Source: an uncultured Enterobacteriaceae bacterium (GTDB lineage: Bacteria > Desulfobacterota > Binatia > Bin18). Taken from it: a DNA stretch of 64,000 bases. The stretch is from assembly GCA_964441775.1 (NCBI GenBank), contig CAYTVL010000002.1, forward strand, positions 169,520 to 233,519. Direction: 5' to 3'. Below, piece after piece: positions 26,364 to 59,861 of this stretch. A program made the position numbers and the translations under genes. The notes beneath the pieces are model-generated. The model saw nothing but the letters and a program-made list of their open reading frames with translations. It was not told the DNA's origin and did no database searches. The number at the start of each line of letters is the position of its first letter. Position 1 is the first letter of the stretch.

Positions 26364-26414
26364 GGTAAATCTCCACGATGACCTGACCTCTTGTTCTTTG
26401 TCATTACTCATGAC

Positions 26415-31743: not shown

Positions 31744-33228
31744 CTATGACCCTGTCCCCGCCACCACAGCCCAGGCGGTGCGTAAAAGGATTTTGAAATC
31801 AAGCCACAATGACCAGTTGTCAATGTATTCAAGATCCATTCTGACCCAGTCGTCAAAGTTGCTAATTTTATTGCGGCCGCGCACTTGCCACAGACAGGTC
31901 ATGCCAGGCTGGATGCTGAGTTTCCGCTTGTGCCAAAACTCGTAGCGATCGAGTTCGTGACGAAAGGCCGGTCGTGGGCCGACCAGGCTCATGTCCCCTT
32001 TTAATACGCTCCAGAGCTGGGGAAGTTCATTGAGACTGTACTTGCGGAGAAAGCGACCGAGAGGAGTGACCCGGGGATCTTTCTTCATTTTGAAAACCGG
32101 GCCCGTCATTTCGTTGTGATGTTGCAAGTTCGCTTTTTGGTCATCTGCGTCAGCCATCATGGTCGTGAATTTGTACCCGGTAAACTCGGCGCCATTGCGA
32201 CCAACGACGCGCCAGCGGTACAACACCGGCAAGTGCGGCGTCGTCAATTTAATCGCGATGGCGATCAGCGCAAACAGTGGTGAGAGTAAGAGCAGTAGGA
32301 TGAAGGAAACAACGAAGTCGAAAAGGCGCTTGAAAAATATGGCTTCGGAGTCCCAGTGTGGCGGCGCCAGCACAACCGCTGGAAGATGGAGCGGTTCAAG
32401 CAGATACAGCGTCTGTAGTGTCCGACGTTCTGTTAAGAGGGCTTCGGGGACAATGCGGAGTAGCACGCCTAAGGCGTCACAGTCCTGAATCACCTGCGCA
32501 ATCCAATCGCCTCCAGCGACAGGGTGGATGGCCAGAACTTCATGGATCGGTTGGTGGATGAGGAGATCACCTAATTGTTCAACCTCGCCGAGAAGAGGAA
32601 TGGTTGAGAGCTGCGAAAGAGGTCGATCCGCTGGAAGGCGCAAGTAACCAAACAAGCGGTAATCGTTGGAAGGGAGAGAAAGACTCTCGGTAAAATATTT
32701 CACCATCCAGTCGATCGCCGATGGTGAACCGACGAGCGCGATGTTTTTGGCGTAGTAGCCTGCGGCGCGGCGACGAAAAGCATAGAAGCGCAAGGCGATG
32801 CGGTAAACAATCAGGCCGATGCTGCTCAAAATAGCAAAAGAAAAAACGAACAATCGACTCCAGTAGGGGTCCTTGAGAGCGAAGAGCACCAAGGCGACCA
32901 AGCTCAACCCTGCGGCCGGGGCTACCAGTCCTCCAAAAAGAATGCGCGTGTACGACTGATTCAGCGGCGGGATGTGGTTCTTCAGCACGCCCAACACAAG
33001 AATGGTCGTCGGGGAGACAACGAGGAGAATCCAAAGCAACCCTGTGAAGGGAGGCAAGACGCCATTCCAGCCCTCTGGGAGCGAAAGCGCTTCAACCCAG
33101 GGAATGCCTCGTAACAACCCTCCTGGTGCGAGAAACACACTTAAACGCGGCACGAAAAGATACGCGATGAGGAACGCGAGGCAAAGGCTGAGGAGATCAA
33201 AGAACCAAAAGAAACGGCGAGGCACCAT
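31744..33228 (-). CDS. WbaP-type undecaprenyl-phosphate hexose-1-phosphate transferase (initiating sugar transferase)
   Basis: N-terminal TM bundle and C-terminal bacterial sugar transferase domain ([19 protein letters not shown]...[38 protein letters not shown]). ATG at 33228 chosen; the longer ORF adds an Arg-rich non-membrane extension. Confidence 0.8.
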
Positions 33229-33334
33229 AGACTTTCCAATTGTAAATACATGAGGGCAGGAGGGGATGGTCCAGGGCTTTACCCTCTCATGTATCAGAGC
33301 GTTGACACGAGTGTGGCCTATAGAGACAACGAGA

Positions 33335-34102
33335 TCAAGTCGAGCCAGGCGCCTTGACCGTGCGCGCCTTGAGGACCTGCCAGACAAACCAGGTGTTGAC
33401 CACTAAATAGCGTTTCCAATAAGCGCGGAAGTCTTGCGAGAGGCGATACAGCCACTCCAGGCCCTTGCCTCTCATCCACTCTGGCGTGTCAGCTTTCAGG
33501 CCGGCCAACACATCAAAACTTCCCCCTACGCCGATACTGACCGGAACCCCGAGCGTCTGGCGATGGGTGTGAATCCATATTTCTTGTTTGGGCGAACCCA
33601 TTGCCACAAACAAGACATCTGGTTTCGTGCGCTGGATGTCAGTAATGACGTGGGCCTCGGTCTCTGGAGTCGTCAGATAACCATGATGAAAACCGGCCAG
33701 GGAAAGTCGCGGATAATCGCTCTGGAGCTTCTGCGCCAGCGTATGGACGACCTCTGGCTGCGCGCCTAAGAGATAGGGGCGGAGTCCCTTTTGCGCCGCG
33801 TAGGGTATGAAGGCTTGGGCTAGCGTCAGGCCGCCAACATGTTCTAGGGGAGGAAGGCCAAGCTGACGCGCGCCCCACACGACTGCCCACTCGGGAATAA
33901 TAAGGTCTGCAGTGAGAACAATCTCACGCAATCGCTCATCCCGCGCCATGAGAAAGAGTTTGTTAGCGTTGACAACGGCGATCTGCCGTGGTTGTCGGTG
34001 CGCGACTGCGCTCGCCATCCAATCGAGCGCTTGCGACATCGTCAAGCGATCAACTGGACAGTCTAGGAAGAGGAGGCGCTCAGGAGATTGGCTGCTCTCC
34101 AC
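33335..34102 (-). CDS. WecB/TagA/CpsF-family glycosyltransferase (GT26)
   Basis: FLDCPVDRLTMSQALDWM...VVNANKLFLMARDERLREIVLTADLIIPEWAVVWGARQLG. GTG start, so the start is uncertain. Confidence 0.7.
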   Translation of the reverse strand: MESSQSPERLLFLDCPVDRLTMSQALDWMASAVAHRQPRQIAVVNANKLFLMARDERLREIVLTADLIIPEWAVVWGARQLGLPPLEHVGGLTLAQAFIPYAAQKGLRPYLLGAQPEVVHTLAQKLQSDYPRLSLAGFHHGYLTTPETEAHVITDIQRTKPDVLFVAMGSPKQEIWIHTHRQTLGVPVSIGVGGSFDVLAGLKADTPEWMRGKGLEWLYRLSQDFRAYWKRYLVVNTWFVWQVLKARTVKAPGST

Positions 34103-35282
34103 GCGGCGCCTCGATTAAGAGTTCGGTCAGGCCTCGCTGCATCCAGGCTTGCGTCCAGCGCATATAGGGAATGCGGATGCGGTAGGCAGGCAGGACCATG
34201 TAGTCAAAGTAGCCAGCCGGATTTTGCAAATGGTTGATGCCCCAGAGGGCGACGCGTAGCGCCAGGTCCCGGGCCTCAGGGTCTCGATCAGCGAAATCCA
34301 AGAAGGTGAGGATGGCTTGCGCGACACAGTGCGCGTCGAGAGGGTAGGTTTTTTCCAGATAGAACTTGGGCGCGCCATCCGGTAAGAACATGCGCTGTTT
34401 CCACAATATATAACCTCGATGTAAGTGCTCATCAAATTCTGTCGTTTCCAGACAGGCGGCCACATGTTTCAACGCCATTAACACATAGCCAGTGTGGAAA
34501 TTATCCACCCATCCTTCATCCGGACCGTCGCCGTAGGGCCAGGTCCCATCCGGACGTTGACGGCGTGCGGTGTAGCGGGCTGCGGCAAGCGCCGCCTGCG
34601 CCAGTTCCGATTCCGTAGTGCAAGCGAAAACTTCGGCTAAAAGCCAGGCTCCGAGCATGTTTGCATTGTGGACACAACGATAGTCGAGGGGAGTGTAGCT
34701 CAAACACATTTCATCTGCTGCTGGACGGGTAGTGTGGAGGTCGTACAGCATGAAGTCGCAGGCGCTCCGCGCTGTGGCCAAAGCCTCACGCTGCTGCTCT
34801 GAAAAGTTGCAAGAGGAGGGTGAAGTCGCTACATCGACAAACGCCAAGCCAATGAATCCCGTGTTCACTACAGTGGGAGTGCCTGCAGGAGCGAAGAAGC
34901 TACGGTTCGGCCAGTCAAAATTGTACCCCCAACAGGGGCCGTGATAGCCTGGAGAAACATGGGTGCGCAGCCAATCAAAGAAAAAACGGACATGGGCCAG
35001 GTCCTCCGCTTGGCCCATCGAGCAGTATTTCCTCCAGTATGACGCCAGAAAGAGTCCCATGCCTTTGGGATTGTAATCTTTGGCAACCTGGAAGAGTGGG
35101 CGAAAATTGATCGGACTGTATTTGAACAAATGCACCCACAGTTGCCCCAACCGCCGCCTGTTGGCAGTGAGACGTTTGAGCAGAGCGCTATTGAGTGCGT
35201 CAAAAGGGTCCCAGCCCTTGAATCCTTCCTGCTCAATCCAGCGGTCGAGTCGCTCAGCCGCAGCCTGCACCTGGTCTTTCAT
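34080..35282 (-). CDS. Hypothetical protein (Trp/Tyr-rich, possibly alpha/alpha-toroid sugar-modifying fold)
   Basis: 400 aa, no motif I can assign with confidence. It is embedded in the glycan run with ATGA overlap to the upstream oxidoreductase. Confidence 0.35.
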   Translation of the reverse strand: MKDQVQAAAERLDRWIEQEGFKGWDPFDALNSALLKRLTANRRRLGQLWVHLFKYSPINFRPLFQVAKDYNPKGMGLFLASYWRKYCSMGQAEDLAHVRFFFDWLRTHVSPGYHGPCWGYNFDWPNRSFFAPAGTPTVVNTGFIGLAFVDVATSPSSCNFSEQQREALATARSACDFMLYDLHTTRPAADEMCLSYTPLDYRCVHNANMLGAWLLAEVFACTTESELAQAALAAARYTARRQRPDGTWPYGDGPDEGWVDNFHTGYVLMALKHVAACLETTEFDEHLHRGYILWKQRMFLPDGAPKFYLEKTYPLDAHCVAQAILTFLDFADRDPEARDLALRVALWGINHLQNPAGYFDYMVLPAYRIRIPYMRWTQAWMQRGLTELLIEAPRGEQPIS

Positions 35283-37459
35283 GGAAGCTTGACTTGCACT
35301 GGTTGCCCCGTAGCGAGGGCGTCCACAATAGCAAAGGTGGCGGCAGTGGTGACGAGCAATTGTTCAAAGGGAATGGGCGAAGGTGCGCCCTGTTTGACCG
35401 CTTCAACCAACGCCAGCATTTCTGCTCGATGTCCCTTGTCTAACGCTGATTTCTTCACTTGGCGTTTCCCGTTCGAAACCAGGGTTAATCGACGAAAATC
35501 ATCGAGCACGACCGCTCGTCCGCCCCCAAGCACCTCTAGCCGCTCTTTTTCCAAGCCTGGATCGCCGTTGGCGGCATAGGTGATTGTCCCCGCGCTGCCG
35601 TTAGCAAAGCGTAACATGACCGTAAGATTGTCTCGGCTGTAGCGCCCTCCATCTGGTAACGCATACGCATAGACCTCAACCGGGGTGCGCCCCACGATAT
35701 ACATGAGCAGATCGACGAAGTGACAGACTTCTCCCACAATGCGCCCGCCACCCTCTTCGGCATCCTGTGTCCAGTGGCTTCGTGGCACATACCCGGCATT
35801 GACGCGGTAATGCAGTAAGAGGGGCTCTCTCGTGCTGGAAACAAACTCACGGAGTGCGCCTACGAGAGGGGCGAAGCGGCGGTTGAATCCTACCAGGAGA
35901 AAGGGCGCAGTCCGCGCTTGCGTTGCGTGTTGATACGCTGTTGCGACTTGCGCGAGCTGATCAGGTGAGAGCGCCAGGGGTTTTTCTACAAAAACCGCTT
36001 TGCCCGCCGCCAGGGCGCGTGCGGTAAGGTCAGCATGGTTATTGTGACGAGAAGCAATGAGCACCAATTGCACGGTAGGGTCGTTCAGCGCCGGTTCTAT
36101 TTCAGAGGTGCATTGGGTAAAGCCGTTTCGTTCGGCAACTGAACGCGCACTTAAACCACTCGACGTGACAACCGTGTGGAGGTGAATGGCTGGATGGCGA
36201 CTGAGATGAGGCAAAAGCATAGATTGGGCGAAATTGCCGGCGCCAATAAGAGCCAGGCCAATCTTTCCCGCACCGTTCTGTACTGGATGCACCTGAATGG
36301 AAACCTCAGGAGAGAAACTTGTTGCTTCTGTCTGCGGCACGCCATAGTCGAGAAGCACGCCCAGATGGGGCTCTCGGGTTTTTCCTTCAATCAGCGTATA
36401 GGCTTGTTCCGCCTCGGACAAAGTAAAGCGGTGTGTGATCAGTGGCTTAACGTCGATTTTGCGCTGGGCCAAGAGGTCCAGGAAAGCCGCCATATTCCGG
36501 CCTTCTGTCCAGCGCACGTAGCCGATGGGATAGTCATGCCCCTTTTCTTCATGCTCCGGGTCGTACCGACCTGGACCGTAAGAACGAGACAAGCGCACGT
36601 CCAATTCTTTTTCGTAAAACGGTGAGCGAGGAACGTCCATGCCGACCGCGCCGACGACAACAACGCGCCCCCGATCACGAGAGAGTTTTCCTGCTAACAC
36701 AATCGGTTCATTTGACGATGTCGCCGCCGTCAAAATGACCGCATCCAGTCCCGCCGGGCTGAAGCGGGAGGCCAACAGCTCGATCTGAGGATCTGCCGGC
36801 GTGGTCGTGGCGTCTGCGCCGAGCTGTTGGGCCAACGCACAGCGAGCCTCGTTAATGTCCAACCCGATTACTCGACATCCTGCCGCTTTCAGCAATTGGA
36901 CAGTCAGCAAACCCAACAGCCCTAACCCGATCACTCCCGCCGTTTCGCCCAAAGTCGGAGAAGCCTGGCGCACTCCCTGTAAGGCAATGGCTCCGATCGT
37001 GGCAAAGGCGGCTTCTTCCAAGCTCACGCCGTCAGGAACCCGTGCACACAGATTGTGAGGAATGTAGGCGACTTCCGCATGGTTTGCATAATTCGCGCCC
37101 GCGCAGCCCACCCTGTCGCCGACTGTCAGTCCAGTAACACGCGAGCCGACCGCTAGTACCACGCCAGCCGACGAGTAGCCTAACGGACTCAGGGCGTCCA
37201 ATTTGCTGATCACTTTTTGATAGGTCGCCGCTAATCCCAACTGGCGGGCCGTGGCGATCACCTGCCGGACTTGGTCCGGTCGAGCCCACGCTTTCCCCAG
37301 CAAGGTTTTCTTCGCCACTTCAACTTTCGCCCGCTCGGTGCCGGCGCTGATGACTGAGAACGCAGTGCGCACCAGCAGCCCTTCGGGATGAAGCCCTGGA
37401 GGAGGGACATCCACAACTTTCAACTGACCACTTCGCTGGATTTGCGTGACTTGTTTCAT
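35279..37459 (-). CDS. Bi-domain oxidoreductase: N-terminal MDR/zinc-alcohol-dehydrogenase-like domain fused to a C-terminal Gfo/Idh/MocA domain
   Basis: MDR GroES-like and Rossmann region (GETAGVIGLGLLGLLTVQLLKAAGCRVIGLD), then LALIGAGNFAQSMLLPHL Gfo/Idh/MocA Rossmann region. Confidence 0.7.
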   Translation of the reverse strand: MKQVTQIQRSGQLKVVDVPPPGLHPEGLLVRTAFSVISAGTERAKVEVAKKTLLGKAWARPDQVRQVIATARQLGLAATYQKVISKLDALSPLGYSSAGVVLAVGSRVTGLTVGDRVGCAGANYANHAEVAYIPHNLCARVPDGVSLEEAAFATIGAIALQGVRQASPTLGETAGVIGLGLLGLLTVQLLKAAGCRVIGLDINEARCALAQQLGADATTTPADPQIELLASRFSPAGLDAVILTAATSSNEPIVLAGKLSRDRGRVVVVGAVGMDVPRSPFYEKELDVRLSRSYGPGRYDPEHEEKGHDYPIGYVRWTEGRNMAAFLDLLAQRKIDVKPLITHRFTLSEAEQAYTLIEGKTREPHLGVLLDYGVPQTEATSFSPEVSIQVHPVQNGAGKIGLALIGAGNFAQSMLLPHLSRHPAIHLHTVVTSSGLSARSVAERNGFTQCTSEIEPALNDPTVQLVLIASRHNNHADLTARALAAGKAVFVEKPLALSPDQLAQVATAYQHATQARTAPFLLVGFNRRFAPLVGALREFVSSTREPLLLHYRVNAGYVPRSHWTQDAEEGGGRIVGEVCHFVDLLMYIVGRTPVEVYAYALPDGGRYSRDNLTVMLRFANGSAGTITYAANGDPGLEKERLEVLGGGRAVVLDDFRRLTLVSNGKRQVKKSALDKGHRAEMLALVEAVKQGAPSPIPFEQLLVTTAATFAIVDALATGQPVQVKLP

Positions 37460-38361
37460 GAGTTCAGCTTAGTTCCGGATTTGGTTTCCAGCTTGGTTCC
37501 ATAAATGAAGAGATACCACCCCAACTTAGCAGCGAGAAACCGTTCAACTTTGTAAGAAATAATGGGGAACGTATTGTGAATAGGCAAGTGGGCGACCGCA
37601 AAGCGGAGGTTACTGAAGTAGGGGCTGAACATGCGAGTGATTTCCGCCTTTGTGTACGAGTATGCGATGGGACATTCCGGACCATCCGTACAATGATGAG
37701 GGAAATGCTTCGTGGAAAAGTAGCGAGCTCCTATCTTCTTATAATTTTGATAGTGCAGTTCCAGATTGCCTGTGCGTTGCTGGTCCGACAAAAAGGGCCG
37801 CCGCAGTATATACGCCAGCACTTGCAGCCGGAGATAGCCTAAAATTCTGACGTAATAGTTGAAGCTGCGTCGATGATACAGCATGATGAGAATCTCGCCG
37901 TTGGGTTTCAAGACGCGGTGAATCTCTTGCAAAGTGTTGGAGAGATTTTGCGTGTGATGCAGCACTCCATGTGAGTACACGAGGTCGAAGGTCTGATCGC
38001 CGAAGTCCGTCATGTGCTCTGCATTTTGCAGTAAAAAGGAACCGGACAGTCCCAGCGCCTCGAAATGCAGCCGCGTTGCTTCCACGGCGGTGGGGGTCAA
38101 ATCGATGCCGGTATAAATCGCCCCGTTCTGCGCAAAGCGGGAGCCGTCGGCGCCGAGTCCACAGCCGACCTCTAAGACGTGTTTCCCACGGTATTGAGCA
38201 AAGGGAACCAGGTCGCTGAGATGCCACTCGGATTGATAACGAAATTCATCGTAGCGGCGAAAAAACTCGGTAGTCGCAAACGGGGCATTGATAAAATGCG
38301 CCCCGCACGGGTGCGTGTTCCAAAACGTCTGTACCGCTTCAAGGTTTGGTGAGAGAGCCAT
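37456..38361 (-). CDS. Class I SAM-dependent methyltransferase
   Basis: VLEVGCGLGADGSRF motif I, LKPNGEILIM post II. Overlaps the upstream AsnB-like gene end by 23 nt. Confidence 0.7.
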   Translation of the reverse strand: MALSPNLEAVQTFWNTHPCGAHFINAPFATTEFFRRYDEFRYQSEWHLSDLVPFAQYRGKHVLEVGCGLGADGSRFAQNGAIYTGIDLTPTAVEATRLHFEALGLSGSFLLQNAEHMTDFGDQTFDLVYSHGVLHHTQNLSNTLQEIHRVLKPNGEILIMLYHRRSFNYYVRILGYLRLQVLAYILRRPFLSDQQRTGNLELHYQNYKKIGARYFSTKHFPHHCTDGPECPIAYSYTKAEITRMFSPYFSNLRFAVAHLPIHNTFPIISYKVERFLAAKLGWYLFIYGTKLETKSGTKLNS

Positions 38362-40351
38362 CCTTTTCCCTTTCGCAAACGAACACGGAGTTATGAGTGG
38401 GGGTGATCACCGGACGATCAATGAACAGTCGCATCCACATTTCAAGAGTGAGCAGCGCCCAGATGCGATAGGCATGATCTTCTCTGCGTTTGCGATCATT
38501 TTCAATCAAGCGTCGGATCGTAACCGGATCAAAGTAGCCACGGGCTCGGATTGTTTCCGGCGACAACAGGTCGTCAACTAAGTTAACAAGATCGGTTTCG
38601 AGCCAGCGACGGATGGGGGCTCCGAATCCAGCTTTCCGGCGTTTCAGGATTGCTGGTGGAAGCAGGTCAGCAACGGCGCGGCGGAGGAGATATTTGCTAG
38701 TGAGTCCACGTATTTTCAAATGGGGAGGAACCCCGGCCATGAATTCAACCAGTTCGTTATCGAGAAACGGCACCCGCATTTCGACTGAGGCCGCCATCGT
38801 CAGTTTATCGCCGTAGGTCAAATTCAATTCCGGCAAGAATGTTTTCAGATCGACATGTAACATCCGGTTCACGAAGTCAGTGTCTGACGCCTCTGCGAAA
38901 TACTGGGAATGACGCCGCCCACTATCGAAGGCGACGAATTGTTGTCGCACGTCGGGGTGATAGAGCGACAGTTGTTGCTCTGCCGAGTAATAGGAGCGAT
39001 TGAAGAGATAACGCTCCTCGGGCGACATATCAACGCCGGCCAGCACTTTGCTGAAGTAGCGGTGAAAGGCCATCACTAACCCTGGATGAATACCCGGAAT
39101 ATGGTCCGCGAGCCACGGCAGCGAGGAAAGTCCGGGCTGCAAGATTCCTGAACGAACCTTCTGTGGAAGCCGGGCGAGGGCTTGAGCGAAACGTTCGACA
39201 AGATGGACCCTATACCCGGCAAAAACTTCATCGGCTCCTTGTCCAGACAACAGGACGGTAACTTGAGGGCGGGCGGCTTCAGCAATGAGGAGGGTCGTAA
39301 TTGCTGCTGGGTCCGCTACTGGCTCGTCGAGATGCCACAGGACACGGGGGAGAAGATCAACCACGTTCGGATCGACTTGCAGTCGATGGAAGCGCGCCCC
39401 AAAATGCTGAGCGACTAATTCCGCATAGTGCTCATCAGCGCCTGCCGCCTGCTCCAGGCGTGCGTCTTCATTGCGAAAGGCGATCGTGTATGCTTCTGCC
39501 GGCGTCTGCGTAATCTGGCTCATCAAGCCCAGCAAAATGCTGGAATCCAACCCTCCAGAAAGGAAGAGCCCAACCGGGACATCAGCAATCAAGTGACGTT
39601 GTACGGCGCGCTCAAGAATCGCGCGGAGTTCTCGAGCGTATTCTTCTGTTGAAGCCTGGGAGGTTTCCGTCCAGCGTAGTTGCCAGTAGGGACGCACTTC
39701 AGAGCGACCGTCGCGCCAGCGTAGATAATGGCCCGGCGGTAATTTGTAGATGTTTTTGAACATCGTGCCCGGGCCTGGCGTCCACAGATGGGCGAGAAAA
39801 TAATGTAGGGCTTCAGGGTCAATCTCGCGGCGCACTCGGGGATCAAGCAGGAGAGATTTAATCTCCGAAGCGAAGAGGAGGCTCCCATTGATCTCGGTGT
39901 AGTACAGTGGTTTGATGCCCAAGCGGTCGCGCACTAACCACAACTCCCGCTGACGGGCGTCCCAGAGCGCGAAAGCGAACATGCCATTCAACTGCTGGAA
40001 GGCGTCGCTTCCTTCGTCCTCGTACAGGCGAAGAATCGTTTCCGTGTCCGTGCCTGAGCGGAACTGATGACCTCGGGCCTCTAAGAGGCGGCGCAATTCG
40101 GGGAAATTGTAGACTTCTCCGTTGTAGGTGATCCGGATCGTGCCCTCGGCGTTGGACATCGGCATGTGTCCCGCCGGAGAAAGATCAATGATGCTCAGCC
40201 GTCGATTACCGAGCCCCACCGTTCGGTCTGGAGAGAGATAGATTCCTCCATCATCCGGCCCCCGGTGCGTGATGACCGCCGTCATCCGTTCGAGCAAGTC
40301 TTTATCGGCAAACCCGGCTGTTCCGCAGATGCCACACAAGGCACACCTCAT
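38339..40351 (-). CDS. Asparagine synthetase-family glutamine-dependent amidotransferase, paralog 1
   Basis: Ntn-glutaminase N-terminus with conserved Cys (LCGICG), SGGLDSS PP-loop. A TTG at 40339 with the next codon Cys would give the canonical M-C-G-I N-terminus; the ORF-track ATG at 40351 gives MRCALCGICG. Confidence 0.85.
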   Translation of the reverse strand: MRCALCGICGTAGFADKDLLERMTAVITHRGPDDGGIYLSPDRTVGLGNRRLSIIDLSPAGHMPMSNAEGTIRITYNGEVYNFPELRRLLEARGHQFRSGTDTETILRLYEDEGSDAFQQLNGMFAFALWDARQRELWLVRDRLGIKPLYYTEINGSLLFASEIKSLLLDPRVRREIDPEALHYFLAHLWTPGPGTMFKNIYKLPPGHYLRWRDGRSEVRPYWQLRWTETSQASTEEYARELRAILERAVQRHLIADVPVGLFLSGGLDSSILLGLMSQITQTPAEAYTIAFRNEDARLEQAAGADEHYAELVAQHFGARFHRLQVDPNVVDLLPRVLWHLDEPVADPAAITTLLIAEAARPQVTVLLSGQGADEVFAGYRVHLVERFAQALARLPQKVRSGILQPGLSSLPWLADHIPGIHPGLVMAFHRYFSKVLAGVDMSPEERYLFNRSYYSAEQQLSLYHPDVRQQFVAFDSGRRHSQYFAEASDTDFVNRMLHVDLKTFLPELNLTYGDKLTMAASVEMRVPFLDNELVEFMAGVPPHLKIRGLTSKYLLRRAVADLLPPAILKRRKAGFGAPIRRWLETDLVNLVDDLLSPETIRARGYFDPVTIRRLIENDRKRREDHAYRIWALLTLEMWMRLFIDRPVITPTHNSVFVCEREKDGSLTKP

Positions 40352-40378
40352 TGCAGGTCATAAAACGTATTTACCTCA

Positions 40379-41350: not shown

Positions 41351-41430
41351 AGGTGCTGCACGCCTCTGCTATGCTTTGCTCTGTTCATCGAAAGGCAACT
41401 GAACACGTTTCCCTCTTTGCTTGTTCTCTC

Positions 41431-43347: not shown

Positions 43348-43387
43348 TTTTCTTCAGTTCCTTGTCAGCGGATTGTCGTTGACATTG

Positions 43388-44626: not shown

Positions 44627-44641
44627 TGTAAAAAGGAAAGG

Positions 44642-46033: not shown

Positions 46034-46051
46034 AGCATCAGCCCGTTTGGA

Positions 46052-48291: not shown

Positions 48292-48310
48292 ACGTCTGCT
48301 GCCCACAGTC

Positions 48311-49258: not shown

Positions 49259-49268
49259 TCCTTCTCTC

Positions 49269-51182: not shown

Positions 51183-51186
51183 AACC

Positions 51187-52023
51187 TTATTGCTTTCTGA
51201 CCGCTACGTTGATTTCCAGAGGGTAGTAAAACGTTGAATGAATAGCCTTATACACGGGGAGAGACATCCGTTTCACAAGATTGAGGAGTCGAGCGAAGAT
51301 GGCGATCGCTTTCGGAAACGGCTCTGGAAACTTGAGCCTCCAAGGAACCAGACCGGTCAGGGATGTTCCAAGAAATTCGCAGTGAAATATTTTCTCAAAC
51401 AACAAGCGAAGCGAATGTTCGTCGAAGTTCCGGACGTGAATATATTTGTACGGACAGGCCGGGTCAACATACAGACTGAGGTCTTCTCGATAGGGCACGC
51501 GGACGAGGAGGACCCCTCCTTTTTTCAACACAGAGAGAATCTTCGTAATGGCTAGATCAAGATTCAGCACGTGCTCTAGAACATCCGTACACACGACGAC
51601 GTCAAAAAAATCTTCCTTAAAGGGCATGTCTTCGACTAACGCATAACAGACTTCGATGCCTTTTGTTTGAGCAATTGTCAAATAGTTCAGGCTGATATCC
51701 AAGCCATATTTTTGCAGGGAGGGCAAAGTGGAGAGCAGCCGTCCGGTGCCCACGCCCACATCGAGAATTTTGTCGCCAGGGTGCGCATATTTCTGGATGA
51801 GCGCAAGCGTTGACTGTTCTAACTCCACCCACAACTCCTCTGGAATCCAGGGATTCTCTCCCGTTTTGTCGTGGGCCTCGAGATGATCTGCAGAAATGCG
51901 TTGGTAATTATCAGTATAGTCGTTAAACTCGGAAAAAACGGGAATAGGGCCGAAAAAGCTCAACGGCGCCCTGACAAACGCATCACTATCCACGATGAAG
52001 CTCCTGTGTGTAACGGCGCTCAA
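51187..52023 (-). CDS. Class I SAM-dependent methyltransferase
   Basis: ILDVGVGTGRLL motif I, LKKGGVLLVRVP. TTG start overlapping the Wzx stop (TTGA). Confidence 0.65.
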   Translation of the reverse strand: MSAVTHRSFIVDSDAFVRAPLSFFGPIPVFSEFNDYTDNYQRISADHLEAHDKTGENPWIPEELWVELEQSTLALIQKYAHPGDKILDVGVGTGRLLSTLPSLQKYGLDISLNYLTIAQTKGIEVCYALVEDMPFKEDFFDVVVCTDVLEHVLNLDLAITKILSVLKKGGVLLVRVPYREDLSLYVDPACPYKYIHVRNFDEHSLRLLFEKIFHCEFLGTSLTGLVPWRLKFPEPFPKAIAIFARLLNLVKRMSLPVYKAIHSTFYYPLEINVAVRKQ

Positions 52024-53492
52024 CTAAAACAAAAAGATTTCGCGTGTGCGAACGCCGTCCATATTTGTTCTTTCTCAACTTTGTTAAGAAAGGCATACAG
52101 AATGAAGGGTAAAACGCAAGTGGCAAGGAGAGAAACTGTCATTGCTGTTGTGAAAGAATCATTTCGTTGCCATAACATGACGCTTGCAATTGTGAAATAG
52201 ACTAAACAGAAACCGACAAGACGACGCCACTCATAGCGAACCTCGATATACCGGTCTTTTCGATATCGATTCCAAGCGTACATCAACCCGGCGGTAGCCA
52301 CATAACCGAAGAATAAAGTCAAAGCCGCGCCCAGCAATCCGAAGCGAGGAATGAGTAATGCGTTCAACACAAGGGCGGCAAACGCAGCGGCAGCTTGAAT
52401 AAAACTGACATACTTCACTTCCTTGGCAAAATAGATACCTGGAAGGAGCAAAAGAAAGACGCCGTTCAAGAGCTGCGCGCCAGCGGACAACCCGACGACC
52501 TTGTACGCTTCATGAAAGCTTGGTTGCGTCAGGAAGACAACGACAGGCCGCGCCCAAATAAAAAAGAGTAAACTGAGAGCGCCAAACCCCACGACATAGT
52601 AGGTCATAATGCGACCGAAGAGAAAGCACGCTTCTGCTTTCTTATCAGAGAAAGACAAGAAATAGGGCATCCACGCGCTTTGCAAGCCCGAAACTGCAAT
52701 CCCCATCGCTGAGCCAAGGTTGAGCCCTATGGTGTAAATACCGACTGCATCTAAACTGCTATACCACTGTAAAAAATACTTATTCCCCTGCTGCAAAATG
52801 AAAAGGAACGCAAAAGAAGGAATGAAAGGAAGACCGAGCTGTAATAATTTGAGCCCGAGCGCCTGATTCACCCGAAAATGCAATGCTGAGGCGACTGGAA
52901 GCAAAAAAAGTCCGAAACTCATTACACGTCCAAGCATTTCTCCTTCAACCATTCCTTGCATCCCTCTATTGAAGATCACGACGAGAACAACGCTGAGACT
53001 GAGGGAGAGAAAGGTTGAAATGACGGTTAAGGCTACAAAAATTTTCGCCCTTTCTTCAAATTGCAGGTATTGGTAGAAGGGGCTGACAAGAATGTTGAAG
53101 CTGATACTGATCAAAGACAGCAGAATGACATAGTGATAACTCGGAGTGTTAAATATCACTTGACTAAGTATACCGCTAAATATTATCCCGAAAGTTGCGA
53201 GAAAAAGGGTGCTGGCCACGAGCAGCAGAAAAGTCGTCCAGATGGTCGCGGCTTTATGTTCTTGACTGCGCTCCTCGAAATAATACACGCCCGTCGCCGC
53301 CCCAAGTCCAAGGGAAAAGATCGGTGTCGCCACGAAACTGATGGCCGCCAGGAGCGAGAGCACTCCATAATCACTGGGGGTGAGATAGGCAGTTAAAAGA
53401 GGAAGAAGGAGCAGATTGAGAAAACGATTCAGCCCTTGCCCCACTCCATAAATGAGGACTCCTTTCGCGAGTCGTGCGACTTGTCCCGCCAT
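52020..53492 (-). CDS. Wzx-type oligosaccharide flippase (MOP/polysaccharide-biosynthesis family)
   Basis: 490 aa, about 12-14 TM helices. Confidence 0.75.
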   Translation of the reverse strand: MAGQVARLAKGVLIYGVGQGLNRFLNLLLLPLLTAYLTPSDYGVLSLLAAISFVATPIFSLGLGAATGVYYFEERSQEHKAATIWTTFLLLVASTLFLATFGIIFSGILSQVIFNTPSYHYVILLSLISISFNILVSPFYQYLQFEERAKIFVALTVISTFLSLSLSVVLVVIFNRGMQGMVEGEMLGRVMSFGLFLLPVASALHFRVNQALGLKLLQLGLPFIPSFAFLFILQQGNKYFLQWYSSLDAVGIYTIGLNLGSAMGIAVSGLQSAWMPYFLSFSDKKAEACFLFGRIMTYYVVGFGALSLLFFIWARPVVVFLTQPSFHEAYKVVGLSAGAQLLNGVFLLLLPGIYFAKEVKYVSFIQAAAAFAALVLNALLIPRFGLLGAALTLFFGYVATAGLMYAWNRYRKDRYIEVRYEWRRLVGFCLVYFTIASVMLWQRNDSFTTAMTVSLLATCVLPFILYAFLNKVEKEQIWTAFAHAKSFCFS

Positions 53493-53516
53493 CCTCGGTC
53501 TTTATTGTCCTACTCT

Positions 53517-54575
53517 TTAGCGTCCCTTCTCCAAGAGGGTGACACAACGAGCAGCCGTATCACCCTCTCCGTACAGAGCCGGGTGGGTGGTTGGAGGCGT
53601 GAATGATCGGGCAGCGGTGAGGATGTGATCGGTGTTTGCTCCTGTTAACACGTTCCAACCTTCCTGAACCGTTTCAATCCACTCCGTTTCCTCACGTAAG
53701 GTCAGACAGGGGACTCGCAGCCAGTAGGCCTCTTTCTGGATGCCGCCGGAGTCTGTGAGGATCATGCGCGCCGCCTGCTCTAAGCGAACCATATCGAGAT
53801 AACCCACCGGTGCGGTGAGGTGTACGTGCGGCGCTGGACTGTATGGCAGTATAGCCATGGCCTTCCGTGTCCGTGGATGTACAGGAAAGATGACTGTTTC
53901 GTCGAGTTGGTTCAAGGCGGCGAGGATACCGAGCAACCGCTGCGGATCATCAATGTTTTCCGCCCTGTGAATCGTGGCCAAAAGATAGCCGCCCTCAATT
54001 AAGTCAAGCTGTTTTAAGATCCGTGAGTGATCGCGGGCGCGCTCTGCCGCCATCGCCAGCGCATCGGCCATCACATCCCCCACGAGATGAACTCCACGCG
54101 TGATGCCCTCGGTCGCCAAATTGTCAACCGCCGTCTGACTGGGGCAGAGCAACAACTCGGAGAGATGATCCGCCATCACTCGGTTGATCTCTTCCGGCAT
54201 CAAACGATTGAAACTCCGCAAACCGGATTCGACATGGGCCACCGGAATGTGAAGCTTCGCTGCGGCAAGCGCCCCGGCGAGGGTGGAGTTTGTATCGCCA
54301 TAGACGAGGACCCAAGCCGGACGTTCTTTCAAAAAGATTTCTTCGAGACGCGCGAGCATGAGACCAGTCTGGACCCCATGAGAGCCAGAGCCTACTGCGA
54401 GGTTGATGTCGGGCTCTGGAATGCCCAGTTCTTCAAAAAACACCTGGGACATACCATAATCATAATGTTGACCAGTATGCACGAGCATTTCGATGTGCTT
54501 TTGGCGGAGCACACGACTCATCGGAGCCGCTTTGATAAATTGTGGCCGTGCGCCGACGACGGTGACTACTTTCAC
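53517..54575 (-). CDS. UDP-N-acetylglucosamine-type 2-epimerase, non-hydrolysing (WecB/WbpI-like)
   Basis: [18 protein letters not shown]-terminus and GT-B-like epimerase fold motifs. GTG start with GTGA overlap. Confidence 0.85.
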
Positions 54576-55741
54576 TGGCGAGCGCCTTGCTCACGATAAA
54601 AATCGGCAACGTGATGCACCACTAGCGCTTGCTGTTCTTGCGTGAGTTCCGGATAGATGGGGAGGGCCAAGGTCTGGGCTGCGGCGCCTTCGCTCGCTGG
54701 AAAGTCGCCTCGTTGATAACGTAACTCAGCGAAGCAATCTTGCTGATGTAAAGGCACTGGGTAGTAAATCTCCGTCCCAATGTCATGTTGCTTGAGGTGC
54801 GTCAGCAAAGCATCACGTTGAGCGCTGCGAATGATAAATTGGTTGTAGATGTGTCGCAGGTGCTTGCCTTCGACAGGTAAACCCACACCTCGATTGGGCT
54901 CTCCCTCGGGCGCACTGAGCCCTGCTTCCGTAAATAACTGGCGATACACGGCTGCATTGCGCTGTCGTGCTGAGGTCCACTCGTCCAAATAGTGTAACTT
55001 GACCCGCACCACGGCGGCTTGTAGGGCGTCCAGACGAAAATTGCCGCCCACGATTTTGTGGTAATATTTGGGGTGCGCCCCGTGACTGCGCAGCAGCTTC
55101 ACTCGCTCTGCGAGGGTAGGGTCATTGGTGGTCACCATGCCCCCATCGCCGGCGCCTCCCAGGTTTTTTGAGGGAAAGAAGCTGAAACAACCAAGATGAC
55201 CAAGCGAGCCCGCGCGGCGTCCTTGATACTCAGCGCCGATTGCCTGGGCGGCGTCTTCAATGACAAACAGGTTGTGACGACGGGCAACGGCGAGAATAGC
55301 ATCCATCTCGGCCATCTGTCCGAAGAGATGAACCGGCACGACCGCGCGCGTACGCGGGGTCACGGCTGCTTCTAGCCGTGCTGGGTCGAGATTGTAGCTC
55401 AGCGGGTCGATATCCACGAAGACCGGTTTGGCGCCCAGGCGAGAAACGCAACCCGCCGTGGCAAAGAATGTATACGGCGTAGTAATGACCTCATCGCCGG
55501 GCTCAACGCCAATAGCCATCAATGCCACGAGGAGGGCGTCTGTTCCTGAAGATATGCCGATGCCGTAGCGACACTGCGAATAGGCTGCCACCTCTTGCTC
55601 CAGGGCTTCAACTTCCGGACCGAGGATAAAGTACTGGGACTCAAACACGCGGTCCACAGCCGCACGGATTTCTTCGCGAATCGTGGCGTACTGGGCTTTG
55701 AGGTCAAGTAATGGGACTTTCACTAGAGGATACCTTTTCAT
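54572..55741 (-). CDS. DegT/DnrJ/EryC1/StrS-family PLP-dependent sugar aminotransferase (WbpE-like)
   Basis: [16 protein letters not shown]...[14 protein letters not shown]...[10 protein letters not shown] (PLP lysine). ATG at 55741 chosen; the ORF-track extension to 55858 overlaps the upstream gene by 155 nt. Confidence 0.8.
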
Positions 55742-57323
55742 TGGCTTTGTGATAGGTTCGTCGGCAGGAGCGACAGGAGCCCAAGCCGTCTCCTTCAGGG
55801 AACTCGATGCGACTGCCGCACGAGCACATCCAACCGACGATTCTTCCTGGATTGCCAATGACTAAAGCAAAATCCGGCACGTCTTTTACGACGACCGCGC
55901 CTGCGCCGATGAAGGCATATGCTCCAATCGTTGTTCCGCAAATGACCGTACAGTTCGCGCCAAAGGTCGCGCCCCGCTTCGCAAGCGTGGGGAGGAATTC
56001 GTTCTTGCGTTCGATCTCGCTGCGTGGATTAATGACATTCGTAAACACCATAGACGGGCCACAAAAAACGCCATCTTCTAACGTGACGCCTTCGAACACT
56101 GACACATTATTCTGGAGCTTGACGTTCTGCCCGATCTTCACATCTTGGGCGACAAAAACATTTTGACCAACGCTACAGTTTTGCCCGATCTGCGCCCCGG
56201 GCATGATGTGACAGTAGTGCCACACCCGAGTGCCTTCTCCGATCTCTGCCCCTTCGTCAACCGTTGCCGTAGGATGGATGAAGATGTTCGGTGATTGAGC
56301 AGAAGAGGGGGGCGCGGTGATTGTGTTCATACTGGAAGGCTGGTTTCTTCCTGCTTCCAAGGCGTCTTGACACTGTTGCAACACCTGCAGGACGCGAAGC
56401 GCTTCCTCGCCATTGGTGCGCGGCTGCTGTCTGGTGGCTATACATTCCAGAAAATGTCCGCATTCTGCCTGCAACGGCTCCACGGGCTCGACTGGTACGG
56501 GCTCTGCCTCCTGTGGATTTGGTATGGGCAGATTATCCCGCCATTCAATCGTATGAGGATAGAGCAACAGCTTGTCTTGTGGATCAAGGTCGTTGAAGAC
56601 CGCCATTTTGCGGTCTCCCACTACCACCAATCGTTGCTCTTTATATGGATGCAGCCAGGAAACAAAAACGTGAGCATTGACCCCGCTAGGAAAGGTGAGA
56701 CAAGTGACGGTGACATCAGCGATTTGTTGATGCAGGTAGTACCCCCCCTGCGCTTGTACTTGTACAGGCGTTTCTCCGACTAACCCGAGAATGACCGAAA
56801 TATCGTGTGGCGCAAAGGACCAGAGAATGTTTTCCTCCCGCCGGATGCGCCCCAGGTTGAGACGGTGCGAGTAAATATATTGTAAGCGGCCTAGCTCACC
56901 TTGGGCGATGAGTTGTTTCAGCGTGAGAATAGTGGGATGGTACCACAGGAGATGCCCCGCCATGAGGATACGCCCCCGTTGCTGGGCGAGTTGGACCAGC
57001 GACTGACCATCTTCTACGGTGAGCGCCAAGGGCTTCTCGACCAGGACATCTTTATCTGCAAGTAGGGCTTGTCGCACTAAAGACGCATGAGACGCGGCTG
57101 GAGTGGCGATGACGACTCCACGTATCGAAGGATTAGTGAGCACAGTAGCCACAGAAGACGTCGCATTGATCCCTGGATACTGAGCGTGGAGATGCTGGAG
57201 GGTCTGTTCGTTGCTGTCACAGATTGTGTGGAGTGCGCCGAGAGTGTGGAAGTTGCGCACCAGATTGCGGCCCCAATAGCCCGACCCAATCACAGCCACC
57301 CGTGGAGATTCAGAATACCTCAT
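55704..57323 (-). CDS. Bifunctional fusion: N-terminal Gfo/Idh/MocA sugar 3-dehydrogenase (WbpB-like) plus C-terminal hexapeptide-repeat N-acetyltransferase (WbpD-like) with terminal Cys4 cluster
   Basis: [15 protein letters not shown] Rossmann N-terminus, EKPLAL motif, then a left-handed beta-helix hexapeptide region ([31 protein letters not shown]...) ending with CSCGSRIEF...GSCRSCRR. Confidence 0.75.
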
Positions 57324-57379
57324 GACTATCTCGCTGCCGTTTCAAGTACGCTCTCAAAACAGTTGCTGAAAACACGCCT

Positions 57380-58933
57380 TTACACCGTTGTTACTGACGC
57401 CACCACATCGTGGACGAGAGCGATTAGCAGGGCAAGCAGTCCGCCTAAGAACGCCGCCAGTACTGACTTCATCACCAGGCCGCGAGATTGCGGGCTATCT
57501 GGCGGCACCGCCGCCGCGCCAAGCCGCACATCTTCGTCCTCTTGTTGCGCTTTCGCAAGCATGGCCTGGTTGTAGTTTTTCGCTAGATTCTCGTATAAGT
57601 TTCTTTGCTGGGCGACATCTTGTTTAAGCTGTCCAAGCTTCACGTCCTGTTCCCGGGTAATACTGTCTAATTCGGATTTTCGTTCGCGATCAAGCGCGGT
57701 TGATTCAAGGTTACGTTGCTCCTTGAGTTTGAATAAGCTAGCCTCACGCGTTCGTTGGAACTGCTCCAGAGTTGCTAGTACGCGCCGGAAGGTTTTTGTG
57801 TCCTCTACGTTCAAACCACTGACCTCAGATTCAAGCTGGGCCAGCCGAAAAACAAGCTCAGTATAGGCTGGGTTCCTTTCTTGAGTACGTAAACTCCGTC
57901 CCTGGAGCGTGTCGAGGTTCGTATCCCGACTCTTTTGTAAAGCTGTAGCTAACCACAAGGGATCATCCCCCATAGTTTTTTCTAACGTCAAATACTGTGG
58001 CGTTTGCAGCAGTTGGAGGCGTAGCACAATGATTTGCTGTAGTTTTTGTTGTAACGCCGCGTTTTGATGTGCGGAAGGTGGTGTTCCTGACGCACCTCGG
58101 GAGGCGCCAGCTTTTGCTTGGTCAGTGTCCAGGGATTGCGCTTCGGATTCGGTCAGCAAGCGCGCGGTTTCTCCTTGGTAGTTCGCAAGCTGATCAGCCG
58201 TTTCATTTTTGAATGCGGTAAGCTTCTGGTCCCAACGAGTTGCCGCCTCGTTGTAGCGTTTTTGGAAGGCATCTGCTGTGGTGGCTCGTTCGGTTTCCAA
58301 CTGGAGCAAGCGTTCTCGAGCTTGCGGGTATTGGTCTTCAAGGAACCGTACTGTGGCGGCAGTGGAGCCTACCGTGATCTCCCGCAAGCGATCGAGAAAC
58401 ACCTGAGCCCACGTATTGGCAATGGCGGCCGCCTGTGCGGACATACGAGCCCGGAGGGCCACGGCCTGTATCATGGGCGCAAGCGAGGTGGTCTCGGACG
58501 TGCGAGAGACGAAGATACGAGTCTCTATTTCGTTTCCTACGCGAAACAAGTCTCTTGCATTAAGGACATTTTGTTCTATGAGGCGCTTCTTCGTTTCGGC
58601 CAAGACCGCGTCTGATTCGAGCAGTTTCTGATATCCTTGTACGGTCAACGTTGCCGGTTTAAGTTCGGAAGAGAACTTTGATGGCGAGACGACGAGAATG
58701 ACTGAAGCCTCATAAGCGCGGGGAGAAAAAAAGAGCACGACGGCTGTCGTGATTCCAGCGATGAGCGCCGCGCCAGTAAGCAACCTGAAGTGGCGTTGAA
58801 AAAACCGCACGACCTGCGCGAGATTGATTTCGTCAACCTCGGTTTTGTGAGGGGGTCGTGGTTGGCCGTTGGCGAGAACGGCTGTGCTCGGCGCTGTGAC
58901 GGGTTGGTCTAAACGAGCTGAAGATATTTCCAT
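57380..58933 (-). CDS. Wzz-type polysaccharide co-polymerase (chain-length determinant), no kinase domain
   Basis: N-terminal and C-terminal TM helices flanking a long coiled-coil periplasmic region, Wzz-like N-terminal region (EINLAQVVRFFQRHFRLL). Confidence 0.7.
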   Translation of the reverse strand: MEISSARLDQPVTAPSTAVLANGQPRPPHKTEVDEINLAQVVRFFQRHFRLLTGAALIAGITTAVVLFFSPRAYEASVILVVSPSKFSSELKPATLTVQGYQKLLESDAVLAETKKRLIEQNVLNARDLFRVGNEIETRIFVSRTSETTSLAPMIQAVALRARMSAQAAAIANTWAQVFLDRLREITVGSTAATVRFLEDQYPQARERLLQLETERATTADAFQKRYNEAATRWDQKLTAFKNETADQLANYQGETARLLTESEAQSLDTDQAKAGASRGASGTPPSAHQNAALQQKLQQIIVLRLQLLQTPQYLTLEKTMGDDPLWLATALQKSRDTNLDTLQGRSLRTQERNPAYTELVFRLAQLESEVSGLNVEDTKTFRRVLATLEQFQRTREASLFKLKEQRNLESTALDRERKSELDSITREQDVKLGQLKQDVAQQRNLYENLAKNYNQAMLAKAQQEDEDVRLGAAAVPPDSPQSRGLVMKSVLAAFLGGLLALLIALVHDVVASVTTV

Positions 58934-59070
58934 GAGAAAACTCTCTTAGAGAAGAAGGGGAGGAGACCTCAGAGAAAAACGACTTTACTGTATTTGTACA
59001 TATAGCTCCGCCTTCTGAGTTACACCGCAGTACCTCAGTGAAGAAACTAAGGAACATTCTCCCCAGTGAG

Positions 59071-59130
59071 GAGTCTGCAGCTTTTTGTTGTGACGACAAA
59101 ACAATTAGGGTTGCAGACTCTCAACTACCG
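59071..59130 (-). promoter_or_regulatory. Structured leader between the NusG-paralog gene and wzz: 9-10-bp perfect inverted repeat plus an ops-core-like CGGTAG hexamer
   Basis: Minus-strand reading is ...GATCGGTAGTTGAGAGTCTGCAA-(31-nt loop with inner TTTGT/ACAAA stem)-CTGCAGACTC... The hexamer CGGTAG matches the core of the E. coli ops element GGCGGTAGCGTG, but the flanks differ. Confidence 0.3.
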
Positions 59131-59148
59131 ATCAGGCTCGCACGTCGA

Positions 59149-59709
59149 TCACGCACGCTCCAACCGCCAGCCTTCAATTTCGACCGCCACACTCCGTTGT
59201 AACAAGTCTACAGAGACGACCATTCGGCTCTTGCCTCGGTATTCTTGGATAACCCCCTCTACTCCAGAAAGAGGGCCGTCCTTGATTTGCACTCGTTCTC
59301 CAATATGCAAGTACGGGAGCGTTGCGAATGCCAGCCCGGAATCAAGCAGTTTCTGTATCGCTTCAACTTGTTTATCAGGAATCGGGGTAGAAACTAGAGG
59401 ATCTTCCCCTAAGATGGTCACCACCCCGGGGGTTTGTAGCACCAAGAGGCGCCTCTCGGGGATACTGGCGACACGAAGAAAAAGATATCCAGGAAAAAGT
59501 GGGCAATCAAGTATTTTTCTGCGGTCCGTTCTCCGACTCAGATGGGGCACGGTCGGTAGAAAGGTGCGCAACCCTTTCCTCTGCAAATTCTTCTCGACAG
59601 TGTATTCATGCCGACTTCGGGTCCAGACTGCGTACCAGGCCTCGCTCTCCACTTCCTCTTTTCCTTTTGACTTACCACCAAACACTGTATCCGCCGTCGT
59701 GTTTCGCAC
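59149..59709 (-). CDS. NusG-paralog transcription antiterminator (RfaH/UpxY-like, NGN plus KOW domains)
   Basis: NGN region (AWYAVWTRSRHEYTVEKNLQRKGLRTFLP...LFPGYLFLRV) and KOW (IGERVQIKDGPLSGVEGVI). ORF-track start is GTG at 59709; an internal GTG at about 59652 preceded by an AAAGG/GAGGAA purine tract would give a typical ~167-aa protein. Confidence 0.75.
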   Translation of the reverse strand: MRNTTADTVFGGKSKGKEEVESEAWYAVWTRSRHEYTVEKNLQRKGLRTFLPTVPHLSRRTDRRKILDCPLFPGYLFLRVASIPERRLLVLQTPGVVTILGEDPLVSTPIPDKQVEAIQKLLDSGLAFATLPYLHIGERVQIKDGPLSGVEGVIQEYRGKSRMVVSVDLLQRSVAVEIEGWRLERA

Positions 59710-59861
59710 GACAAAAACACGTGAAGGGACGCTGAGGAAAGCGGAGGCGAATATACCCCCTCAAGCTGTCTTTGTCAAATATAGTGAGAGGTGAAAAGGC
59801 TATCGACTTGCTGCTCCGTCTCATGCTAGGAAGTGACGCGAAGCAGTGTGGAGGTAAAGAT

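Follow-up and report, generated by a model that had tools for sequence, protein, structure and literature searches.

A conserved ops-type box beside UpxY-like NusG paralog genes at the head of a Binatia glycan operon and in related loci from several phyla

The 64-kb window analysed here (the whole stretch of 64,000 nucleotides from contig CAYTVL010000002.1 of an uncultured bacterium assigned by GTDB to the Binatia) carries on its minus strand a gene for a specialised NusG paralog, followed by a leader and a long run of glycan genes. The leader contains a 23-nt box and an RNA hairpin whose 3' arm is supplied by the box itself, and the same combination recurs near the genes of related paralogs in several phyla. 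The direct observations are the family assignment of the paralog, together with the conservation, strand bias and paralog linkage of the box and the covariation of its hairpin. We infer from sequence that the locus is a new UpxY/ops-type system from a new lineage, in which the ops site comes after the regulator gene, and a route leading from the promoter through an ops-type pause and docking of the paralog to read-through of the glycan operon is the explanation that we consider probable. A wider reading is that the hairpin and the consensus TGTrACy-sAGAGGGCGrAGCwrT constitute a single cross-phylum ops signal for a large UpxY-like clade outside Bacteroidota (Acidobacteriota, Nitrospirota, Binatia and 'delta' lineages), which would act in cis and in trans on polysaccharide and occasionally nonribosomal peptide synthetase (NRPS) clusters, GCGrAGC being the common core behind Escherichia coli ops (GCGGTAGC) and Bacteroides opsX; we hold this to be evenly balanced between right and wrong.

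The conserved box and its hairpin

About 170 related loci, cited by L numbers, were compared in all. The genome set consisted of the best 80 loci encoding relatives of the paralog in species-representative genomes (38-52% identity), from Acidobacteriota, Nitrospirota, Binatia, 'delta' lineages, Planctomycetota and Verrucomicrobiota. A position weight matrix (PWM) was built from 33 box instances near paralog genes, with no relative included that exceeded 71% protein identity to the window paralog, and yielded the 23-nt consensus given above. The orthologous leaders share a block 127-131 nt past the paralog stop codon, the window version of which is GGTGTAACTCAGAAGGCGGAGCTATAT. In the window, the box (TGTAACTCAGAAGGCGGAGCTAT) lies 131 nt downstream of this stop codon and is preceded by the pause-type hairpin, the module as a whole extending over 59038-59002; the 20-mer at 59023-59004 is present in exactly one copy (0.07 expected).

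The G, C, G, A, G and C bases of the core were each kept in 31 to 33 of the 33 instances, and the middle base was a purine in 32 of them. At 14 bits or more, the PWM matched 40 times on the sense strand and twice, weakly, on the antisense strand over the 493 kb of related loci. The matches precede the paralog open reading frame (ORF) by 17-140 nt or follow it by 56-290 nt. The box-adjoining paralog genes come from several phyla and are 40-52% identical, and the block, which is non-coding and is found at variable positions and in unlinked operons, retains about 90% identity. Proteins so diverged have saturated DNA, yet the 23-nt block is nearly unchanged, and its conservation is therefore not a matter of neutral descent. 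The upstream arrangement is typical of Acidobacteriota, where the ATG of ...AGCTATG is often the start codon of the paralog, and two loci have a box on both sides of one paralog gene (L022, 858 and 1473; L075, 160 and 1112). The fusion of box and start codon was seen in L016, L019, L020, L024, L055 and about 26 metagenome loci (e.g. L091, L100, L121). In many Acidobacteriota an ops-type site would thus appear fused with the translation start of the paralog, which recalls the class-2 sites of Bacteroides (start at +9).

An exact-pattern scan of metagenome contigs gave at least 120 box matches. Among the 80 metagenome loci listed, which were found by the motif only, a paralog gene was present on the same strand in 41 and on the opposite strand in 2, and about 15 well-flanked copies had no paralog nearby. 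We scanned the first ORFs after ten paralog-less boxes; eight of these boxes were well-flanked copies, and the other two belonged to loci truncated upstream. The ORFs encode Wza-like exporters (Poly_export, two cases), a GT4, polysaccharide deacetylases (two cases), an epimerase, a UDP-glucose/GDP-mannose dehydrogenase family protein, a PPTase followed by AsnB, an NAD synthase followed by AsnB, and an NRPS (one case). Since paralog-less boxes precede other polysaccharide operons in relatives, these data suggest that the factor also acts in trans. The AsnB-like genes following such boxes are those of L093 and L099, and in L135 a paralog-less box (core at 1246, motif orientation) lies 38 nt before an ORF with NRPS condensation and adenylation domains; the signal may not be restricted to glycan operons.

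The hairpin was assessed with RNAfold, against dinucleotide shuffles of the upstream 42 nt, and with tables of pairing partners; MAFFT could not register these hairpins, which have variable loops. In the genome set, the minimum free energy structure paired the eight arm bases upstream in 22 of 36 cases, versus 12.4 ± 2.7 in shuffled sequences (maximum 18, 200 shuffles), with a mean energy of -11.9 versus -9.8 ± 0.4 kcal/mol. The independent metagenome set behaved in the same way, with the arm paired in 43 of 75 cases (26.3 ± 3.4 in shuffles) and a mean energy of -10.95 versus -9.19 ± 0.26 kcal/mol. Partner covariation in the metagenome set was evident at index -4 (C:G 45, T:A 11) and index 0 (G:C 20, C:G 18), and fully compensated arms were found (GAGCCACA/TGTGGCTC and CACTTGCA/TGTAAGTG). 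The apical part of these hairpins is variable and G-U pairs are frequent, and the many G-U pairs argue for a stem formed at the RNA level. A search for the best 8-mer complement discriminated poorly (6.89 versus 6.51 pairs) and is not to be relied on.

Rfam provided no relevant match in the window, and none at the gathering threshold; at E values up to 10 on 58850-59900, only two chance-level matches were obtained, neither of them relevant. A text search of the literature recovered no paper quoting the box, and its string matches were unrelated eukaryotic primers only. An ATG stands immediately after the box in the window, L089 and L090, with none in L002 and L004. In the window it opens a mini-ORF, which is followed by a C/U-rich tract reaching the wzz start (58940-58975, minus strand), and CCCTCTTCTCGCT is common to the orthologous leaders at this place. 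The mini-ORF and the tract could represent a leader peptide, a rut-like unstructured stretch, or neither.

Other sequences were noted at loci of the family in which the consensus box was missing. Variants of the CCAGAATCGnGGGGCGAAGC type are found in L010 and L029, from 'delta proteobacterium' metagenome-assembled genomes, as CCAGAATCGnGGGGCGAAGCyATG downstream of the paralog (+67 and +70, respectively). In these variants the GGGCGAAGC core is unchanged and the upstream half is different, as expected if the upstream half sets specificity. Tandem repeats of the GGCAAAAG type occur 20-150 nt upstream of box-less paralog homologues in L005, L006 and L088 (65-66% identical); the homologue in L087 (62% identical) is also box-less, with only a short GGCAAAAGG-like stretch upstream.

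The NusG paralog, its promoter and the glycan operon

The product of the paralog gene contains a NusG NGN domain (Pfam, E value 3e-19) and passed the UpxY family model NF033644 (111.8 bits, cutoff 100), with an alignment spanning residues 25-181 and positions 1-162 of the 164 in the model. It scored below the cutoffs for RfaH (TIGR01955, 83.4 versus 144.5; NF006534, 53.4 versus 124), LoaP (NF033641, 71.2 versus 125) and housekeeping NusG (TIGR00922, 51.6 versus 135.7). The gene is not in a secE-nusG-rplK context, its neighbours being a divergent sugar-nucleotide set and the wzz-led glycan cluster, and no other NusG-like ORF is present in the window. An earlier note on this DNA, made from the sequence, had described the protein as NGN plus KOW. 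We confirmed the NGN domain with Pfam and found the KOW domain as a C-terminal beta-barrel in an AlphaFold2 (AF2) model, the Pfam KOW model itself not reaching an E value of 0.001. The AF2 model (predicted local distance difference test score 80) comprises the NGN domain and a five-stranded barrel, and Foldseek returned full-length matches to NusG and RfaH structures. AF2 predicted no RfaH-like autoinhibited helical C-terminal domain (CTD), a result to be read with the unreliability of AF2 on fold-switching states. The closest homologues (61-71% identity) have 168 aa and their start aligns with GTG 59652, so the true start is probably this codon, giving a product of 167 aa.

The TTGACAA box of the promoter and a -10-like element 17 nt further on recur upstream of the orthologues in L002, L004, L089 and L090. 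With a near-consensus promoter upstream that recurs in orthologues, the transcription unit therefore begins with the paralog gene, which occupies the head position of a polysaccharide operon, first after the promoter and followed by 20 glycan genes. A small hairpin, GTCGTG-CGAAA-CACGAC (59696-59712, minus strand), falls in the probable 5' untranslated region of the paralog, or within the ORF if translation starts at 59709, and its stability was no better than that of shuffled sequences.

All the long ORFs from 59709 to 31744 are on the minus strand. The earlier note had counted 22 co-oriented genes in a glycan operon; the co-orientation and the glycan content stand, and the number is corrected to 21. 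The tight junctions with 4-nt overlaps that it described were also recovered, since past the 215-nt leader the genes overlap or are separated by gaps of at most 80 nt. The junctions between the longest ORFs include five 4-nt overlaps (one GTGA, one TTGA and three ATGA). Pfam and NCBIfam scans identified a polysaccharide cluster encoding a Wzz-like chain-length protein, a GFO-oxidoreductase/hexapeptide-acetyltransferase fusion, a DegT aminotransferase, a UDP-GlcNAc 2-epimerase, a Wzx-type flippase, three AsnB-like amidotransferases, four S-adenosylmethionine (SAM) methyltransferases, two SDR epimerases, a GT4, a GT1-like protein, an ADH-GFO fusion, a WecG/TagA transferase and an exopolysaccharide (EPS) polyprenyl glycosylphosphotransferase (TIGR03025, 345 bits). 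Promoter- and terminator-like matches within the cluster were not strong and not above those in shuffled sequences. Convergent rmlB, rmlA and rmlC genes abut the 3' side of the cluster, ending at 31708, and the divergent sugar-nucleotide genes precede it.

The three amidotransferase and four methyltransferase genes lie together with the two fusion genes at 38339-51182 (minus strand), which points to a heavily amidated and methylated sugar polymer as the glycan product. Two operon proteins had no Pfam or NCBIfam match (34080-35282 and 44642-46033, both minus strand), one of them a soluble protein of 400 aa and the other a multi-pass membrane protein of 463 aa, possibly a Wzy-type polymerase. 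Outside the operon, the adjacent ORFs 22743-24860 and 25026-26411 (both minus strand) match positions 625-1265 and 275-619, respectively, of TIGR03903 (TOMM system kinase/cyclase fusion), and this pair may be either a split or frameshifted gene or a two-gene form of the fusion. The DnaJ protein encoded at 376-1524 has its best named matches in Candidatus Binatia metagenome-assembled genomes (70-79% identity), which makes a Binatia-related source probable.

Table 1. Coordinates in the window of the features of the paralog locus
Feature	Position	Strand	Remarks
Sigma-70-type promoter, TTGACA-17 nt-TATATT	59750..59778	-	11/12 consensus positions; upstream of the paralog
UpxY-family NusG paralog	59149..59709 (longest ORF)	-	Pfam NGN, NF033644, AF2, Foldseek
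CGGTAG of the earlier note	59125..59130	-	Not part of the functional element
Inverted repeat GAGTCTGCA/TGCAGACTC around an inner hairpin (P1)	59071..59120	-	Closest relatives only
Candidate RNA pause hairpin, CUGAG-GUAC..GUGUAA-CUCAG	59015..59038	-	3' arm is the TGTAACy half of the box
Ops-type box, TGTAACT-CAGAAGGCGGAGCT-AT	59002..59024	-	GCGGAGC core 59011-59005; predicted pause 3' end near 59004-59002
10-codon mini-ORF, MYKYSKVVFL	58969..59001	-	Directly after the box, 9 nt past GAAGG; read from sequence
Glycan genes downstream of the paralog (n = 20), wzz-like to EPS polyprenyl glycosylphosphotransferase	31744..58933	-	Presumed antitermination target

Comparison with known NusG paralogs

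The UpxY system of Bacteroides fragilis was reportedly described by Chatzidaki-Livanis and colleagues in 2009. UpxY proteins of Bacteroides are recruited at pause sites in the leader, named opsX (Saba et al. 2024, PMC11685472), in which a NusA-enhanced RNA pause hairpin is combined with upstream duplex DNA and with a non-template-DNA hairpin whose stems are GCG..AGC. The class 1 consensus is 5'-YGCGNAGCR and recognition is performed by the NGN domain; the hairpin-encoding region works via pausing and upstream duplex DNA, not via RNA recognition. These sites precede upxY, whose start codon is found at +9 to +111, and class-2 sites are 9 nt from the start. The ops site of E. coli carries 5'-GCGGTAGC, and LoaP is cited as binding a leader RNA hairpin (PMC11685472). 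Reviews describe the recruitment of cis-encoded paralogs beyond E. coli and Bacteroides as unknown.

The window locus resembles the Bacteroides system in that the NusG paralog, which passed the UpxY model, is the first gene of a polysaccharide operon, and in that the leader has an RNA hairpin and a GCG-N-AGC core, as in class-1 opsX (GCGGAGC, 59011-59005). The earlier note had considered the class of target motif to be uncharacterised, which does not hold for a core that is the one experimentally defined for Bacteroides opsX (PMC11685472). Several features nevertheless differ from those of Bacteroides. The window site is located 131 nt after the paralog gene and not before it, with the box upstream in many Acidobacteriota relatives; the next gene is wzz-like, with no UpxZ match among the operon proteins (small ORFs not scanned); no invertible promoter is evident here; and the core is flanked by G...T/A rather than by the Y...R of YGCGNAGCR. 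Furthermore, the Bacteroides sites have diverged for locus specificity, whereas the consensus described here is near-identical across phyla and also at paralog-less sites.

As in the E. coli RfaH/ops system (JUMPstart element), a specialised NusG paralog is associated with long polysaccharide or lipopolysaccharide operons, and trans action is suggested by sites that have no regulator gene beside them. The 12-nt ops site forms a GC-stemmed non-template hairpin (GCGGTAGC), with the pause at T then G. The family consensus GGCGrAGCTrTG aligns with ops (GGCGGTAGCGTG) without gaps and matches at up to 8 of the 12 positions, whereas the window 12-mer (GGCGGAGCTATA) matches at 6 and has A, not G, at +1. 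If the pause is placed at the second T, the consensus has G at -10 and T at -1, and often G at +1; the first T would suit equally as the pause position. In contrast to ops, the loop is one base shorter and the flipped-out T6 is missing. The paralog also differs from RfaH in failing the family models, in having no autoinhibited helical CTD predicted by AF2 and in being encoded in cis. Bacillus LoaP and Myxococcus TaA, which act on antibiotic clusters, are likewise cis-encoded beside a very long target operon, with involvement of a leader hairpin. However, the paralog failed the LoaP model (71 versus 125 bits), the proposal for LoaP is that it reads an RNA hairpin and acts on intrinsic terminators, and the targets here are glycan genes, although one paralog-less box precedes an NRPS gene.

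The predicted recruitment route and its alternatives

Transcription would start at the conserved sigma-70-type promoter (59778-59750), and the polymerase would pass the paralog gene and the lineage-specific hairpin (59120-59071) before meeting the ops-type module (59038-59002), composed of a nascent-RNA hairpin with TGTAACy as its 3' arm and then AGAAG-GCGGAGC-TAT. By analogy with ops (GCGGTAGC) and opsX (YGCGNAGCR), we infer pausing, recognition of a DNA hairpin and antitermination at this locus. RNA polymerase is predicted to pause near 59004-59002, where the sequence would place G at -10, T at -1 and, at +1, a purine or G. The GCGrAGC mini-hairpin, displayed on the exposed non-template strand, would be recognised by the NGN domain of the paralog. 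The paralog would then displace NusG, and the complex so modified would be resistant to Rho and to pausing along the 26 kb of the glycan operon. With the ops site located beyond the paralog gene, the regulator would be synthesised independently of its own action and would feed forward on later polymerases, the body of the operon being licensed only after the factor accumulates.

Several observations weigh against this route or against the generality of the signal. No box was found at 19 bits or more in 48 of the 80 genome loci of the family, and some of these have variants such as CCAGAATCGnGGGGCGAAGC; the signal therefore appears to have diversified, and the 23-nt consensus does not seem to cover the whole family. 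The pause hairpin of the window itself is weak (-8.2 kcal/mol, z = -1.7). The GGCGrAGCT mini-hairpin is not folded by ViennaRNA with DNA or RNA parameters; its presumed stability as DNA draws on published analogy and on background knowledge of d(GCGAAGC), a classic DNA mini-hairpin of exceptional stability. In the 3' half of the box (AGAGG-GCGrAGC-wrT) the stem bases are invariant, which makes covariation uninformative about a DNA hairpin, and the flanks of the core depart from the Bacteroides pattern, as noted above. The purine run GAGAGGG has the look of a Shine-Dalgarno sequence, and the box is often followed by an ATG. Lastly, if the paralog has no helical CTD, as the model suggests, the protein alone gives no evident need for a recruitment site.

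The main alternatives to the ops-type route concern the way in which the box is read. The hairpin and the purine-rich tail might be read as RNA, for instance by the KOW domain as proposed for LoaP, rather than as non-template DNA. The covariation and the frequent G-U pairs show that the RNA-level stem matters, and binding of a leader RNA hairpin is reported for LoaP (cited in PMC11685472). However, the invariant GCGrAGC core is the element that acts as non-template DNA via the NGN domain in Bacteroides and E. coli, the paralog passes the UpxY model and fails the LoaP model, and the hairpin region in Bacteroides acts by pausing and upstream duplex DNA (PMC11685472); we regard RNA read-out as unlikely, but as the strongest of the competitors. 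A box serving mainly in translation initiation comes next and is somewhat less likely still. In this case GAGAGGG would serve as the Shine-Dalgarno sequence of a start codon 7-9 nt further on, belonging to the paralog in Acidobacteriota or to a short leader peptide in the window (59001-58969). The many loci in which ...AGCTATG supplies the start codon of the paralog, the ATG directly after the box in the window, L089 and L090, and the 9-nt distance of Bacteroides class-2 sites from the start codon all favour such a role, whereas conservation over 23 nt includes TGTrACy and CGrAGC, which are superfluous for a ribosome-binding site, the 5' half of the box covaries with an upstream arm, and many copies (including those of L002, L004, L007, L011, L012 and L013) have no correctly spaced start codon. 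Both roles could be present together, as in class 2 of Bacteroides. The box could finally be a promoter or a site for a regulator of polysaccharide genes that binds double-stranded DNA, with no relation to elongation control. Its fixed orientation 5' of gene starts and the intergenic position of paralog-less copies before operons are compatible with such a site, but it has no likeness to -35/-10 or -24/-12 spacing, NusG-paralog genes are linked to it in 41 of the 80 motif-found loci among the matches listed, its place is often within an operon, after the paralog stop codon and before the following gene, and the covariation and G-U pairs of the stem favour a transcribed element. Of all the alternatives, this is the one to which we give the least credence.

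Between the last two ranks the site proposed in the earlier note, which we consider improbable, in which the paralog is recruited at CGGTAG (59130-59125) together with the 9-bp inverted repeat (59120-59071). The general idea of that note, a NusG paralog heading a long glycan operon with a structured leader and an ops-like element before wzz, is borne out; the specific site is not, and its interpretation was right in kind and wrong in place, the conserved element being about 100 nt further downstream. The perfect inverted repeat is real. Its coordinates are exact, its 9-bp arms are unique in the window and 0 such repeats are expected in shuffles, and with the nested inner hairpin, which was also as described, it folds at -20.4 kcal/mol (z = -4.1). 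The stem arms AGTCTGC...GCAGACT are kept in the leaders of L002/L003, L004, L089 and L090 (with one mismatch in L002), and the stem changes among these four closest orthologous leaders are single and G-U-compatible, with no compensatory changes beyond them. Conservation of the large hairpin is confined to these relatives and is mostly at the sequence level; neither the hairpin nor its sequence was found in more distant loci, yet these retain the downstream box. CGGTAG, which sits within GATCGGTAGTTGA at 59133-59121, belongs to the E. coli ops sequence, but it occurs 25 times in the window versus 18 ± 4 expected, which is chance level, and the check on orthologous loci that the note had proposed found it in none of the L002, L004, L089 and L090 leaders. 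Of the ops element GGCGGTAGnnTG the leader holds only this motif, which matches 6 of 12 positions, without the GCG..AGC stem bases, the stem-forming G and C of ops being missing. The 59071-59120 stem is probably functional in this sub-lineage, and RNA stability, processing or spacing are possible roles. A role as terminator was considered and rejected: no U-tract follows the hairpin on its 3' side, so it is not a canonical terminator, and its position ahead of the recruitment box excludes it as a terminator overridden by the factor.

Whether very long and costly operons for surface polysaccharides and natural products are transcribed in full is decided by specialised NusG paralogs. The signals that recruit these factors have been established by experiment in E. 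coli (RfaH/ops) and Bacteroides (UpxY/opsX), and an RNA-hairpin mode has been proposed for LoaP. Taken alone, the window displays an expected kind of regulation with an unsurprising mechanism, and the added value lies in the cross-phylum box, in which the same GCG-N-AGC logic appears with a constant 23-nt consensus in abundant, mostly uncultured environmental phyla. If the ops-type reading is true, the ops and opsX signals would be linked in evolution, and the location of the ops site after the regulator gene would provide a natural test case in which the regulator does not antiterminate its own gene. The box would also permit simple annotation of the leaders of exopolysaccharide clusters and of their regulons in metagenomes, as a sequence tag with which antitermination regulons could be predicted in uncultured soil and sediment bacteria.

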